NCBI GenBank assembly: GCA_963842525.1
Contig: CAWJGT010000011.1
Location: 198,002 to 262,001, forward strand
Reading direction: 5' to 3'
DNA: 64,000 nucleotides
Origin: an uncultured Holophagales bacterium
Lineage (GTDB): Bacteria; Acidobacteriota; Thermoanaerobaculia; Multivoradales; UBA5704
Within the stretch, counting starts at the first letter, position 1, and every line of letters begins with the position of its first letter. The notes beneath the pieces were generated by a model that did no database searches, was not told the DNA's origin, and saw nothing but the letters and a program-made list of their open reading frames with translations. Both the position numbers and the translations under genes were made by a program. Of this stretch, positions 2,520-7,935 are shown piece after piece.

Positions 2520-2948
2520 GCCCTGGACTACGCCCGGCAGACCCTCGGGATCGATCGCATTCTCCTCAGCAAGCAGCTCCGTGCGACGAAGGGCAACATC
2601 TTCCTGCAGCACCTGAGCTCACTGATCAATGTAGGAAAGGGCGGGCAGGGCGCCATGCCCGAGATCCTGGGAGCCTACCTGCAACGGATCGATTGGAACA
2701 GGGCAGGTCTACCGTCGCGGATGTTCCCCCTGACCCGCGATGACCTCCATGCGCCCAGGCTACTCACGATCGATCCGAAGATCGCGTTTGGGCGCCGCAT
2801 CGTCGAACGGAAGGCCATCAAGACCTCAGTGATCGCCGAGCGCTTCAAGGCCGGAGAATCGATCTCTGAGATTGCCGAGGACTACGATCTCGAGGCGTTC
2901 GAGGTTGAAGAGGCCATCCGGTACGAAGCCCTCCCCACCGCTGCCTGA
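2520..2948 (+). pseudogene. 5'-truncated DUF433-domain antitoxin (VapB45-like)
   Basis: IDPKIAFGR...IAERFKAGESISEIAEDY is DUF433-like. The frame continues upstream (ALDYARQTLGIDRILLS...) with no start codon and no N-terminal HTH. Confidence 0.65.
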
Positions 2949-3072
2949 GCCGACCTTTTTCACAGACAGGGACCTCGGGAAAACAGTCCCCCGAATCCTG
3001 CGCGAGAACGGGTTGCTGAGGCGTGGAGCTCTCCAGAGCGGGGTGCTCCACCCGAGGCACACATCCACCTGA
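2941..3072 (+). pseudogene. N-terminal fragment of a PIN-domain (VapC45-like) toxin
   Basis: LPEPTFFTDRDLGKTVPRILRENGL overlaps the antitoxin stop; similarity is lost after about 28 aa. Confidence 0.6.
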
Positions 3073-3420
3073 CCTTTGCGCGATGGCGCATCGGAAAGGG
3101 GTAGGCGTCGCGAGACGACGAACCCACTTGACGAGCGGCTTACCTGAGGATCTGCGGACGAGGAGAGTTGAGTGCGGTCGGGCCCCCAAAGAATCCCCAT
3201 CCATCGCTGGCGTGGAACTGGCTGACCACCCGGCCCAACGGGCCGGCAGAACGGAGCCCAGGGCTTCTATGTGGGCCACCGGTGTCAAGCGTCTCGGGGT
3301 GGTGGTTCGTCGTTTTCCCTTTCCTGGCCCCCCCTCCTGTCACCGGTTTTCTCGCTTCTTGGTTCTCAGTCCGTCTGGCGCTTGCCCGGAGTGTGCAGGG
3401 ACCTGGGGAGTCGTCCTTTC

Positions 3421-3562
3421 CAGCTTCTATCCGTGCTGACCTCTTTGGGTCAGGACACCAAATGCAGCATGCGCTGTCGAGCGACTCAGGCAAGCTCTCG
3501 GAGCGGCCCCATCTGAGAGAACGGTTCGGAAGCCGAACCAAGCCCTGGGCCGGGCACGCTCC
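3421..3562 (-). ncRNA. candidate bridge RNA / seekRNA of the IS110 element
   Basis: Two stem-internal loop-stem modules whose loops match the target site and the circle junction (see findings). Confidence 0.7.
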
Positions 3563-3597
3563 ACCAGTCGTTTCTCTCCGAGCTTTTTCCTCCCAGA

Positions 3598-4735
3598 TTA
3601 CTTCGTCTTCAGCTCAGCACCCTCAGGAATCACACCGTAGTCCAGATAGCGCCACAGCGCGATCAGCAGCTTGCGGGCGAGGGCCACGATCCCCACCCGC
3701 CGAGATCGGCGGCTCCCAGGACCATAACGCTCCTGAAACCACAAGCTCAGGCGACTCTGCGGTTGGAAGCGCAACCAGCCCCAAGCGATCTCGATCGCCA
3801 TCGCCCGGACCCGACGATTCCCCGCCTTGCTGATCCCTTGTTCGTGGTTGACCGTGTCACCGCTCTGATAAGGCATCGGCGTCAGACCCGCCAAACCGGC
3901 CACCTCACGGCGGTTGCGGAACTGCCGCCAGCCGAAGAACTCCACCACGAACAGCCAACCACTGTTGCCTCCGATCCCCTTGAGCTCTTGCAGCCGCTGC
4001 ACCTTCTCCGTCGCTTCCACGCTGGCCGTCCGGCGAAACCGCTCGAGCTCGGCAATCTGACTCTCCAGCACAGCCAGACGCTCGCCCTCTCGCCTCAAAC
4101 GCTCCCGCAAGCTCGCCAGCAGCCTCTCGCCGTTCCACTGCCTCGCCTGATCCAGCTGCTGCAGAAAGCCCTTGCCGACTTTCACCCCCCGAGCCCCCAC
4201 GCTGGCCAGCAGGCCCTTGATCCGATTGGTGTGGGCCGTGCGCTCCTGCTTCAGAGACTCAAGCTCCCGAGCCAGGTGACGCTCGTCCTCCTGCTCGGGG
4301 GTCGGCGCGTGCGCTACCCCGAACACCTTCTTCTCCCCGCGCTCGTAACGGATCAACAACGACAGCAACTTCTCCACGTCCACCCCATCCGTCTTGGCCC
4401 GGCGATGCCGCCGATTCACCTCGATGCTCGAGGAGTCCATGACAACGTTTTCCACTCCCTCCGACAGCAGGAACCGGTGGAGCCAGAATCCATCCCGTCC
4501 GGCCTCGTAGCAACTCACCACCCGAGCCGACTCCGGCACGCCAAGGCGATGTTTGGCCCGCGCGATCTCCAGCATCAGCCCGGCAAGGTCACCCGGCTGC
4601 AACTGTCCGCTGACTTGCCCTCCGTCCAGCCTCTACACCAAACCCCAGCTTCCACTCGCTGGCGCCGAGCTCCAGGGCCATATGTAACACCGCCTCCGTT
4701 CGCGTAGACTCTGCAATGCGGGTTGTCTGGTTCAT
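3598..4735 (-). CDS. IS110 family recombinase/transposase (frameshift near 4592)
   Basis: Motifs ALELGASEWKL, CYEAGRDGFWLHR, RAKTDGVD, GLTPMPYQSG, GISKAGN and ALARKL. RBS AAAGGAG precedes ATG 4735. Confidence 0.92.
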
Positions 4736-5168
4736 CGGGGTTCTCCTTTCTAACCGCTAAAGTTCCCCCGAAACATACAACCGGCGACCCGCTTTTGCAT
4801 CCCCCGCCCTGCATAGCATCTGAGGCCGAAGGCCGATGCCCTGGGCAGAGAGGTGATCAAACCCCGCGGCCTGAAAGGCCCGCGAGAGAGATTTCTGCCG
4901 GAGTCGGCTCAGCGCTCGGTTTAGCCAGAGGTCTCGCGGCCTTTCAGGCCGCCTGAACGTGGGGCCTGTTGACCCAGGGCATCGGCCTTCGGCTAGCCCT
5001 GGGCTGGAGTCTCCCGGCCCGTTGGGCCGGCCTGGAAGGCTTGGGTTGCGGGCAAGCGCGAGCTCGCGCTGAGAGGGAAACCGGAAAGTCCCTCGCCAGC
5101 GCACAAGGTGGACCGGTTGGTGCTTCGGTCCCCTGAAACCTTCCCCCACCCCGCTCCGTACTTCCCTC

Positions 5169-5208
5169 TTGACGACCGACTACCGGAGTAGTACTATCCC
5201 GGTAGTCG
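5169..5208 (+). promoter_or_regulatory. sigma70 promoter overlapped by tandem palindromic operators
   Basis: TTGACG-17-TACTAT, with ACTAC-N4-GTAGT and ACTAT-N4-GTAGT boxes directly upstream of a BlaI-family gene. Confidence 0.75.
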
Positions 5209-5228
5209 AACGGAAGGAGACGAAGCTT

Positions 5229-5630
5229 ATGGAACCCTCAGTCAACCTCGGCGACCTCCAGCTCGCGATCATGCGGGTGCTCTGGGCCCGGGGCGAGGCG
5301 ACGGTGGCGGACGTGCATGAGGCGCTGGAGCCCGAACGGGGTCTGGCCCTCACCACGATCGCCACCATGCTCGTCAAGATGGAAAAGAAGGGGGTGGTCG
5401 ACCACCGGGCGGACGGCCGGAAGTTCATCTACCGGCCCCTGGTGAGCGAGGACCAGGTGACGCGGTCGATGGTGGCCGGCCTGACCTCGCAGCTCTTCCG
5501 GGGCGACGCCATGGCCCTGGTCAACCACCTGCTGTCCGAGCACGAAATCGATCGGCGGGAGCTGAACCAGCTCCGCGAGCTGATCTCGGCCCATGGTGCC
5601 GAGAAGACTGCCAAGAAGGAGGAGCGCTGA
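5229..5630 (+). CDS. BlaI/MecI/CopY family transcriptional repressor
   Basis: LGDLQLAIMRVLWARGEATVADV...TTIATMLVKMEKKGVV..YRPLVS; RBS GGAAGGAG. Confidence 0.93.
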   Translation: MEPSVNLGDLQLAIMRVLWARGEATVADVHEALEPERGLALTTIATMLVKMEKKGVVDHRADGRKFIYRPLVSEDQVTRSMVAGLTSQLFRGDAMALVNHLLSEHEIDRRELNQLRELISAHGAEKTAKKEER

Positions 5631-5631
5631 A

Positions 5632-7935
5632 ATGTCCGGCATGACATCCCTGTCCCAATTGTCGGCGGCCTGGCTGCTGACCTACGCCCTGCACAGCACG
5701 CTGTTCCTGGGGCTCGCCTGGCTCGTCTCGCGGCGGCTGGCGAAGCGGCAGCCCAGGGTCGAGGAGGCGGTCTGGCGATTCGCCCTGGTGGCCGCGCTGG
5801 CGACGGCCTCGCTGCAGCTCGCCGCGGGCTTCAAGCCCCTGGCCGGGAGCTGGAGCCTCACGACGCCGGCGGTATCGGAGATGTCCGCCGCCTCCGCTCC
5901 TCTTGAATTCAAGTCCACGGTTTCTCAGGCCTCCTCACCGCGGGTGGCGGCGCCGGTCAGGGCTCTCCGCGCTCCCTCCCCTCTGCGCATTCCTGCCGGT
6001 GCCGCCCCCGCGGGGCCTGTGACGTCGACCCGTCCCTTGTCGATCCCCTTGCTCTTCGTCGGCCTGTGGTTCCTGGGCGCGCTGTTGCTCTCGGCCCGCT
6101 GGCTGGCAGGACATTTCCTCCTGCGCCGGCGGCTGCGGCCGCGGCCCGAGGTGGTGGGCGGGAACATGTTCTCGCAGTTCGCCTCGCTGGTCGGGGAAGC
6201 CGGCCTCGACGCGCCGGTGCGCCTGACCTGCTCGTCGCGGCTGTCGGTCCCCATTGCGCTGGGGCTCACCCGCCGCGAGGTCTGCGTGCCGCCGAAGGCC
6301 CTGGCCTCGCTGGCGCCGGAGGAGCAGGAAGGGATGCTCGCGCACGAGCTGGCGCACCTGGTGCGGCGCGATCCGTTCTGGCTCGCGTTCAGCCGGATCC
6401 TGGCGAGCGTCTTCTTCTTCCAGCCGCTCAACTGGGTGGCCTACCGCCGGATGCGTGAGATCTCCGAGCTGCTCTGCGACGAGTGGGCGATCGGCCGGAC
6501 CGGCCGTCCGCTGTCGCTCGCCCGCTGCCTGGCCGAAGTCGCCGGCTGGTCGTTCCATCCGGTCGAGGCCCTGGCGGCCCCGGGCATGGCGGACCGGCCG
6601 TCGCACCTGGCGCACCGCATCCGCCGCCTGCTCGACGACGGCCGCACGCCCGAGCGCCGGGTCCATCCCGGCTGGCTGGTCGCCGGCATGATCGTCCTGC
6701 TGGTCGCCGTGGCCGCCGCCGCGCCGGGGGTCTACGCCGCCGGCGCAGCCCTGGAGAAGGTGGCCCAGGACCCCAAGGCAGAGCTGGCAGTCGATGAGGA
6801 CGAAGAGGGTCCGATCGACGAGGAGGAGTCGCTGGCCGAGCAGATGGAGGATCTGGCCGAGGATGCCGCCGATATGGCCGAAGATGCGGCCGAGCTGGCC
6901 GAGCTCGATGCCCTGGAGGATCTGGAGGACCTGGGCGGCGAGCTTGACGATCTCGAAGACCTCGACGAGCTCGAAGGCCTCGATGAGCTGGCTGCCCTGT
7001 CCGATCAGAGGGCGCAGGAGATCGGCGAGCGCTCGGGCCGGGAGGCGGAGGAGATCGCCCGGCGCTATGAGCAGATGGCGCGGGAGATGTCAGAGCGGGT
7101 CGAAACCCAGATCGGCCCCCAGATGCGCGAGCTGCAACAGAAGATGGCCGAGCAGATGAAGCTCCTCGAGCAGAGCCCGGAGATGAAGCGGCTCCACGAG
7201 CGGGCGCGGGAGATCGCCGAGCGGGCCCGTCCGTCCGAGGAGGAGATGGCGCGGCTCCATGCCCAGATCGAGAAGCTGCGCAAGGAGGGCGGTCTGTCCT
7301 CCGAGGAGAAGGGGCGACTCCGCGAAGACGCCCGGCGGATGGCCGAGAGGCATCGCATGAGCGACGAGGAGCGCGCCGAGCTGCACAAGCTCGCCCAGGA
7401 GGCGCGCGAGATGTCGCGGAAATTCAACGAAGAGCACCGGGCCGAGATCGAGAAGATGCGCCACGAGGTGCAGCAGCAGAGCCAGGCCATGCGCGAGCAG
7501 ATCCGCCGCCAGCTCGAAGCCGATCCGCAGTACCGTGAGCTGCGGGAGAAGGCCCGCCGCGACCACGAGCAGCACCGCCAGAAGATGCGCCAGGAGATCG
7601 AGAAGCATCGCGAGCAGCGCCAGCAGGACCACGAAAAGCGGCGGGAGGAGATCCGGAAGCACCGCGAGGAGCGGAAGCACGAGCACGAGCGGGAGCACCG
7701 GAAGGAACGGTCTTCCCAGGGCGCTCTGGAGTCACCCGACGTCGACGCCATGCTTGCCGGCCTCGACCACTTCGATTTCGCTCAGGACTTCGACTTCGAT
7801 TTTGACTTCGACTTCGATCCGGGCTTCGATCCGCAGATCGACTTCGATTTCGACCACGACTTTGACTTCGAAGGGTTCGACTTCGACTTCGAATACAAGG
7901 AGCCGGCCGCGGCCGAGCCCGACGGGCGCCGCTGA
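5632..7935 (+). CDS. M56 family (BlaR1-like) metallopeptidase with long charged coiled-coil C terminus
   Basis: LAHELAHLVRRD (HExxH), FFFQPL and ELLCDEWA motifs; TM segments; directly follows the blaI-like gene. Confidence 0.9.
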   Translation: MSGMTSLSQLSAAWLLTYALHSTLFLGLAWLVSRRLAKRQPRVEEAVWRFALVAALATASLQLAAGFKPLAGSWSLTTPAVSEMSAASAPLEFKSTVSQASSPRVAAPVRALRAPSPLRIPAGAAPAGPVTSTRPLSIPLLFVGLWFLGALLLSARWLAGHFLLRRRLRPRPEVVGGNMFSQFASLVGEAGLDAPVRLTCSSRLSVPIALGLTRREVCVPPKALASLAPEEQEGMLAHELAHLVRRDPFWLAFSRILASVFFFQPLNWVAYRRMREISELLCDEWAIGRTGRPLSLARCLAEVAGWSFHPVEALAAPGMADRPSHLAHRIRRLLDDGRTPERRVHPGWLVAGMIVLLVAVAAAAPGVYAAGAALEKVAQDPKAELAVDEDEEGPIDEEESLAEQMEDLAEDAADMAEDAAELAELDALEDLEDLGGELDDLEDLDELEGLDELAALSDQRAQEIGERSGREAEEIARRYEQMAREMSERVETQIGPQMRELQQKMAEQMKLLEQSPEMKRLHERAREIAERARPSEEEMARLHAQIEKLRKEGGLSSEEKGRLREDARRMAERHRMSDEERAELHKLAQEAREMSRKFNEEHRAEIEKMRHEVQQQSQAMREQIRRQLEADPQYRELREKARRDHEQHRQKMRQEIEKHREQRQQDHEKRREEIRKHREERKHEHEREHRKERSSQGALESPDVDAMLAGLDHFDFAQDFDFDFDFDFDPGFDPQIDFDFDHDFDFEGFDFDFEYKEPAAAEPDGRR

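Follow-up and report, generated by a model that had tools for sequence, protein, structure and literature searches.

REP (repetitive extragenic palindromic) sequences are natural targets of the insertion sequence (IS) IS621, whose core is CT, and the bridge RNAs of IS621 and the IS110 group have reportedly been treated by Hiraizumi et al. in 2024. For the IS1111 type, Durrant 2024 (PMC11208160) gives a short left end, a long right end and subterminal repeats of 7–17 bp, predicts right-end bridge RNAs in 93% of IS1111 elements with the donor nucleotides often in a multiloop, and refers to Tobes & Pareja 2006 for REP sequences that serve as targets of IS elements. Siddiquee 2024 (PMC11187229) describes the IS1111-type elements ISEc11, ISPa11, ISKpn4 and ISPst6, in which a non-coding region downstream of the transposase yields a seekRNA whose top-strand-complementary segment lies 5′ of the bottom-strand one, together with a promoter made in the circle and natural retargeting; in that study, redirecting insertion by a change of guides called for a change of the donor flanks too. 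A further IS110-family element, ISPpu9 of Pseudomonas putida, is inserted in a REP and has a small-RNA gene downstream of its transposase (compared here by description, from part of PMC12288879). The locus considered here lies in a 64,000-nt stretch (the window) of contig CAWJGT010000011.1 from an uncultured Holophagales bacterium (assembly GCA_963842525.1). It holds an IS110-family element on the minus strand at 3264–4821, with 1,554 bp between two AG copies (∼1.55 kb), and we conclude, with a probability of about 0.88, that this element has an IS1111-type layout and that its right end encodes a bridge-RNA/seekRNA-like guide of ∼180 nt (∼3562 to 3381).

The short left end (84 nt), the long right end (332 nt), the RNA region downstream of the gene and the order of the guides follow the IS1111 pattern, the subgroup being assigned from layout and ISEc11, ISPa11, ISKpn4 and ISPst6 being compared by description. 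As in the IS1111/seekRNA elements, the transposase is presumed to be of the DEDD kind and has a PF02371 C-terminal domain, the guide segments overlap at the insertion point, there is no target duplication beyond the core, relatives are naturally retargeted and a promoter would form in the circle. Unlike these elements, this one has a protein of 378 aa (in its intact copies) against a quoted 330–350 aa, a glutamate as its presumed first catalytic acid, a short and imperfect subterminal repeat and an AG core. The target loop and donor loop, each of which would read both strands around a 2-nt core, are shared with the IS621/IS110 bridge RNAs, whereas IS621 carries its RNA on the other side of the gene, upstream in the left end, and with the reverse guide order. 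A preliminary description of this locus, made from its letters, had called it an IS110/IS1111-type element, and profile searches place the protein in the IS110 family. The 378-aa protein (P0001), encoded by the open frame of four sibling copies, passes NCBIfam NF033542 ‘IS110 family RNA-guided transposase’ with 183 bits (cut-off 140; residues 61–366 on profile positions 47–340 of 343) and PF02371 (Transposase_20, C-terminal) with 63.1 bits (cut-off 21.3). The serine motif GLTPMPYQSG (of the G-P----SG type quoted in Siddiquee 2024) is present, with S291 and G292 invariant in the alignment of relatives, and the protein has a conserved 18-residue N-terminal extension. Only the C-terminal domain aligned in a PDB sequence search (ISCro4, E = 1.7 × 10−6; IS621, E = 2.6 × 10−5).

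Copies were searched for over the whole 9.95-Mb, 34-contig genome and the flanks of the matches were examined. Three subfamilies emerge: A, with five full copies of at least 99.7% identity (the window copy included), one 5′-truncated copy and one 55-bp right-end remnant; B, with two copies at ∼90% DNA identity; and C, with four copies at ∼77%. Wherever a flank is present, the subfamily A copies occupy the same REP position, the AG of one REP family (...GGCCT(T/G)CGGCCTC-AG on the left and AG-CCCTG(G/A)GCT on the right), while both B copies lie in ...CTC-AG / AG-CTCCGCCCGA and all C copies in ...GCATAA-AG / AG-CCTGG(C/G)G(C/T)T, directly before another REP-type hairpin. Each subfamily has one target sequence, one orientation and AG on both sides, as expected of IS110-family insertion, which is site-specific and oriented, takes place at a short core and involves neither terminal inverted repeats nor a longer duplication. 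Empty sites carry the AG once, against twice around an inserted element: the uninterrupted 23-mer of subfamily A, GGCCTTCGGCCTCAGCCCTGGGC, occurs 11 times elsewhere in the genome, and the 13-mers made of 3 nt, AG and 8 nt number 13 (A), 5 (B) and 19 (C), most of them within the same repeat families. Since the targets of B and C belong to two further repeat families, at least three REP-like families are present in the genome. Among relatives the element is patchy, with a match in 2 of 20 related genomes (one at 58% identity, one a fragment).

When the right ends of A, B and C are aligned, the first ∼190 nt after the stop codon are mostly conserved, bar two short stretches in a stem-loop (module 1), and it is these stretches that match the targets. 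In subfamily A the 5′ stretch GCCCAGGGCT (3550–3541) is the reverse complement of AGCCCTGGGC, the AG plus 8 nt of its own right flank (10/10), and the 3′ stretch CTCAG (3517–3513) equals the left flank plus core. In B the 5′ stretch is GGGCGGAGCT, which stands in the same relation to the AG and first 8 nt of the B right flank (10/10), with CTCAG on the 3′ side. In C it is GCGCCAGGCT, with TAAAG on the 3′ side, and is complementary in 10/10 positions to the AG and first 8 nt of the right flank common to three copies and in 8/10 to those of the fourth (L010). The 3′ guide is three left-flank bases plus AG in each subfamily (5/5). The segment that complements the top strand, on the right of the core, thus comes first in the RNA, and the 3′ guide repeats the top-strand letters on the left. 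A 10-nt match of this kind is more than chance, because the sister subfamilies and related loci have one at the equivalent place in the alignment, made of other letters.

The related loci come from a protein-profile scan of species-representative genomes, which returned 80 loci with transposases 50–83% identical, in Acidobacteriota, Chloroflexota, Gemmatimonadota, Planctomycetota, Burkholderiales and others. Module 1 of A, B and C was turned into a covariance model (R1), which gave 53 matches in 52 of the 80 loci, 51 of them on the gene strand and 18–278 nt after the transposase stop. R1 missed the other 28 as well as the locus of ISRel9 (discussed below); a broader model, R2, recovered 25 of the 28 (23 downstream and 2 upstream of the gene) and ISRel9, and found no module 1 match in L059, L062, L075 or the E. 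coli plasmid element L101. Of the 53 hits with enough flank, 39 have a right end that reads CAT(A/G)GA-AG, and left ends are conserved as AG-AT-NN-NATG. Guides and flanks were then compared in non-redundant loci, with mismatched guide/flank pairs given equal register freedom as controls. Over the 9 nt from the core G, identity to the reverse complement of the 5′ loop averages 7.2/9 vs 3.95/9 in the controls, and exact right-flank runs of at least 6 are found in 20/37 loci vs 10/1322 controls. Left-flank runs of at least 3 match the 3′ loop in 28/41 loci vs 86/1622 controls, and the two variable bases of the donor 5′ guide (NNAU) are complementary to the left end ATNN in 28/41 loci vs 313/1640 controls. 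Some 40 relatives in the five named groups obey the same code.

These results confirm what the preliminary description had read from the letters and support its interpretation. A letter-by-letter check located every string it quoted, including the 10-nt complement of the right flank and the CTCAG match within 3562–3500, and GCATTT (3465–3460) and ATAGAAG (3430–3424) in a second module. The empty site that it had reconstructed exists, other copies do sit in the same REP position as it had suggested checking, and the AG core that it proposed is common to all copies. Covariation of loops and targets, the point on which it had asked to be judged, is seen in 3/3 subfamilies and in the related loci.

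The predicted helices covary as well. In module 1, 97.1% of cells are paired and 13 of 17 pairs change on both sides, counts that are favoured by an alignment fitted to the model; none of 500 shuffles did as well, and slid partners gave 41–53%. RNAalifold on a MAFFT alignment of 40 full-length RNAs recovered only 16 pairs, a low recovery due to the structure-blind alignment, so the helices were written by hand and counted. Four such helices (GCCC/GGGC of module 1 and, in module 2, the closing stem, the CGC hairpin and the GUG...CAC stem with its hairpin) were paired in 90% of cells on that same structure-blind alignment, vs 33–44% for slid partners, and compensatory changes affect 5/6 pairs of the closing stem and 5/8 pairs of the inner stem of module 2. 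A fourth module 2 hairpin, GGAC...GUCC at ∼3422–3395, aligns too poorly to count and was left unsupported. An Rfam search of 2800–5300 on both strands (E ≤ 1) gave no match on the guide RNA. Its sole match, Acido-Lenti-1 at 3231–3275 on the minus strand (19.2 bits, gathering score 37, E = 0.24), lies at the junction of REP and right end and is probably just the REP hairpins.

We propose that the 5′ strand of module 1 would pair with the target top strand from the AG core rightwards over 8–9 nt, and its 3′ strand with the bottom strand over the core and the 3 nt to its left. Module 2, which is identical in A, B and C, as are the element ends, would read the element's own joined ends, with AUAGAAG reading the right end plus core and GCAU pairing with the first four bases of the left end, whose complement it is. 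A complex of the DEDD transposase and the RNA would place the circular form of the element alongside the REP site, and strand exchange at the AG would leave an AG on both sides. In this scheme, which builds on the sequences, copy positions, empty sites and the guide/flank and helix covariation observed here, the RNA would be made, bind the protein and guide recombination. The promoter used for expression would exist in the circle only, formed by TTGACA in the right end and GATGCT across the junction. The perfect TTGACA faces outwards, joined ends would place it 17–18 nt before GAT-NN-T (here GATGCT, formed by the core G and the left end), and TTGAC is kept in 40/41 related right ends, in most cases at a distance of 16 nt from the end of CATAGA. 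We infer a junction promoter for the window element by analogy with ISEc11 and ISEc21, for which the sections of Siddiquee 2024 cited above (PMC11187229) give an arrangement of the same kind.

A number of observations weigh against a guide RNA of this kind. Folded as a single sequence, 3267–3600 is not significantly stable (z = −0.64; 22 of 100 shuffles fold as well), and the minimum-free-energy structure is without the outer stem and uses a different outer pairing; the folding check suggested in the preliminary description thus failed to separate the sequence from its shuffles, and support for the structure comes from comparison, where the module 1 counts carry the advantage of the fitted alignment. 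On the left side the guide amounts to just 3 nt plus core. Pairing of the donor 5′ guide extends over 4 nt only, leaving the two bases opposite the core unpaired, and this guide is imperfect in 13/41 related loci, and a minority of loci match their flanks poorly (run of at most 3 in 10/37). On the protein side, PF01548 (DEDD domain) reaches 22.3 bits against a cut-off of 29 and aligns to residues 77–178 only, and the first presumed DEDD acid, E22 (ALELG, window ∼4672–4670), was placed by eye; residue 22 is E in all three subfamilies and 8/10 aligned relatives and D in 2/10. A promoter scan of the integrated copy found no sigma-70-like promoter, and the proposed −10, GATGCT, is weak, with an 18-nt spacer. 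Contigs of relatives from soil metatranscriptomes in three studies cover 3370–3568 at 90–95% identity, a cover that shows neither ends, strand nor transcription and may come from DNA carry-over. RNA-run shares were 0.06, and matching at 85% likeness gave short contigs over 3370–3568 and parts of the gene, with uncovered bins elsewhere; neither cover nor gaps were counted as expression or silence. A contig joining 3264 to 4822 was considered as an excision product and rejected, being an empty REP variant of another organism.

It might be asked whether the matching words are guides at all: they could be no more than REP fragments captured by the right end, or the REP hairpin could be recognised by the transposase through its DNA structure. 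The right target in A and C is one arm of a hairpin, so the guide resembles the other arm of the same REP, and the 10-mers of AG plus 8 nt occur 118–135 times in the genome and are therefore not rare words. However, the words always occupy the same place in a scaffold that is conserved and covaries, both in three subfamilies and in loci with unrelated targets, no palindrome was seen in the subfamily B flank examined, and mismatched pairs score far lower. With the scaffold and the controls as grounds, captured REP fragments and protein-only recognition were both considered and rejected, and we regard them as very improbable. More can be said for an RNA that guides target choice only, with module 1 acting as a short seekRNA, the protein recognising the ends by their subterminal repeats and module 2 serving as scaffold or processing signal. 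In the part of Siddiquee 2024 (PMC11187229) that deals with it, a short seekRNA of 70–100 nt is enough for ISEc11 movement and the role of the long form is left open; the shortness and imperfection of the donor 5′ guide described above agree with this, as does the presence of a subterminal repeat (CTATG/CATAG plus extension), and AUAGAAG, being nearly invariant, cannot covary. Against it, the two variable donor bases follow the left end in the 28/41 loci given above vs 19% of mismatched pairs, and AUAGAAG reproduces right end plus core exactly, at a module 2 position that mirrors the left-flank guide of module 1. Helix counts place the donor nucleotides in a multiloop, as the IS1111 predictions in Durrant 2024 (PMC11208160) have it for many elements. 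We think a target-only role unlikely and retain the two-module guide.

A separate alternative touches the window copy only. Its transposase frame is split (4735–4589 and 4602–3598) by a single extra T at 4591, which alignment with the four sibling copies shows to be present in this copy alone; the frameshift noted in the preliminary description is thus real in the assembly, although at 4591 rather than 4592. With its ends and RNA intact and its transposase frameshifted, the window copy could move only with the protein of its four intact siblings. The extra T could instead be an assembly error and the copy intact, given that the genome is a 34-contig assembly, that the T falls within a run of G (GGGG in the four siblings), and that copies of such high identity are hard to assemble. 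We consider an error the less probable explanation.

Among 13 insertions (7 A, 2 B, 4 C) there are no cross-insertions into a sibling's target. Given the same ends and an invariant donor module, any subfamily's RNA should be able to carry any sibling's circle. Strict coupling in cis of each element to its own RNA, for example through a ribonucleoprotein assembled on the transcript of its own circle, is a tentative explanation that we put forward with more doubt than confidence; 3′ guides that extend beyond the core by one to three bases, into the partner's sequence, may contribute to it. The base that follows the core in the donor 3′ guide (AUAGAAG-N, window equivalent 3423) equals the first right-flank base in 24/32 non-redundant loci vs 31% of mismatched pairs. 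The post-core bases, this N in module 2 and AU(G) in module 1, resemble short ‘handshake’ extensions. With them the RNA might, speculatively, also read the integrated junctions for excision. If coupling in cis is real, the clade would offer a natural setting in which to study how cross-talk is avoided among RNA-guided recombinases.

The preliminary description implied a novelty that the literature does not bear out, in that REP-targeting IS110/IS1111 elements and their guide RNAs are already in print, in the portions of Durrant 2024 (PMC11208160) and Siddiquee 2024 (PMC11187229) considered here. The present element is a new example of a mechanism described in 2024; its retargeting to three repeats within one genome illustrates that mechanism and adds no new principle, and our understanding of it is unchanged. 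What one genome does offer is three sister elements with the same ends and donor module and three target loops that each match a different repeat, and the relatives provide a ready covariation table (AG core; right guide 8–9 nt; left guide 3–6 nt; donor guide 4 nt) along with intact orthologues for screening compact RNA-guided recombinases. For annotation, a 330-nt ‘non-coding’ tail is explained, and REP-like repeats are seen to be insertion hot spots in this soil bacterium.

The nearest named relative found is ISRel9, an NCBI-named transposase on a Rhizobium plasmid (L102), with 41.7% identity over 96% of the protein. Like the window element it has a left end AG-ATCCCATG ∼80 nt before the start codon, and R2, unlike the narrow R1, detects module 1 there, 59 nt downstream of the stop codon (24.3 bits, E = 0.005); its right end differs, being without CATAGAAG. 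No paper mentioning ISRel9 was found in the literature searched.

Table 1. Features of the element and its REP target in window coordinates; RNA features are predicted
Feature	Position	Strand	Remarks
REP hairpin left half, interrupted	4822..4846	−	GCCCAGGGCATCGGCCTTCGGCCTC; same 23-mer uninterrupted 11 times in the genome
Left target bases CTC	4824-4822	−	last 3 nt of the left REP half, copied in the RNA
Left AG core dinucleotide	4820..4821	−	AG on both sides in 11/11 full copies (5 A, 2 B, 4 C)
Left end, 84 nt	4736..4819	−	starts ATGCTATGC
ATG extension of left end	4819-4817	−	
Left subterminal repeat CTATGCAGGGC	4816-4806	−	
Ribosome-binding site AGGAG	4747-4743	−	eight bases 5′ of the ATG at 4735
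Transposase gene	3598..4735	−	frame broken by extra T at 4591; stop TAA 3600-3598
Right end, non-coding, 332 nt	3597-3266	−	would encode the two-module RNA, ∼180 nt
RNA module 1, target-binding stem-loop	3500..3562	−	sequence GGAGCGTGCCCGGCCCAGGGCTTGGTTCGGCTTCCGAACCGTTCTCTCAGATGGGGCCGCTCC at 3562-3500
Module 1 outer stem		−	GGAGCG-U-GCCC / GGGC-CGCUCC
Module 1 5′ guide GCCCAGGGCU	3550-3541	−	
Module 1 inner hairpin	3539-3523	−	
Module 1 3′ guide CUCAG	3517-3513	−	followed by AUG, the first bases of the left end
RNA module 2, donor-binding multiloop	3381..3494	−	
Module 2 closing stem	3494-3489 / 3386-3381	−	CUUGCC / GGCAAG
Module 2 small CGC hairpin	3485-3471	−	
Module 2 5′ guide GCAU(UU)	3465-3460	−	
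Module 2 stem GUG / CAC	3458-3456 / 3435-3433	−	encloses hairpin 3455-3436
Module 2 3′ guide AUAGAAG	3430-3424	−	
TTGACA, −35-like hexamer in right end	3283..3288	−	outward-facing
Right terminus GGCCCACATAGA	3266..3277	−	subterminal repeat partner and conserved CATAGA end
Right AG core copy	3264..3265	−	
REP unit right half	3228..3263	−	starts with right flank CCCTGGGC
Right target CCCTGGGC	3263-3256	−	would pair with the 5′ guide
Second small hairpin CCGGCCCGTTGGGCCGG	within 3228..3263	−	after the right target

At the termini of the element (Table 1), the left REP half ends ...GGCCTTCGGCCTC at 4822 and the right end closes ...TTGACA-N11-CATAGA at 3266 (...CACATAGA). The subterminal repeats CTATGCAGGGC (left) and GGCCCACATAG (right) pair at 9/10 positions with a one-base offset, with terminal extensions of 3 nt and 1 nt outside them. 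Within these repeats CTATG/CATAG is conserved family-wide, and the extension of the repeat is weakly above control (3.8/6 vs 3.0/6). A first local alignment for such repeats had returned only unrelated 6–11-nt matches; the repeat was then found by eye and checked.

Partial copies also occur. The truncated subfamily A copy (L008, G000:C9:1835727-1836563) comprises element positions 717–1554, with its left break inside the transposase gene and a normal right junction in a REP. The solo 55-bp right-end remnant (L013, G000:C12:20675-20729) is 96% identical and abuts the REP right half AG-CCCTGGGCT; the sequence upstream of it is AT-rich and unrelated, which points to deletion or replacement of the remaining part. 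Among the related loci, L022:90-158 is a second copy of the RNA module with its own CATAGA-AG right end, ∼1.3 kb upstream of the left end of the full element, and is a tail-only remnant inserted close to the full copy. The two R2 matches upstream of a transposase gene (L077:296-371 and L080:1294-1369) may belong to a neighbouring partial element or reflect a variant layout.

The repeat targeted by subfamily C is a hairpin, CCTGGCGC-TTCA-GCGCCAGG, flanked by GCCCCGAAGGGGC hairpins, with 19 empty sites. In the window, the stretch 4866–5035 shows that the occupied REP is one of a pair, whose second unit is inverted, unoccupied and lies at ∼4975–5008; this second unit reads GGCTAG-CCCTGGGC, vs CCTCAG-CCCTGGGC in the occupied one. 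Small GCGGCC-N-GGCCGC hairpins lie between the two units in an arrangement resembling a bacterial interspersed mosaic element. Adjoining the REP pair on the plus strand are an open reading frame for a 153-aa winged-helix, repressor-like protein (5169–5630) and another of 780 aa (5593–7935) with a HELAH motif and a long, highly charged tail of DF repeats, which, judging by their translations, look like a BlaI/BlaR1-type regulator pair.

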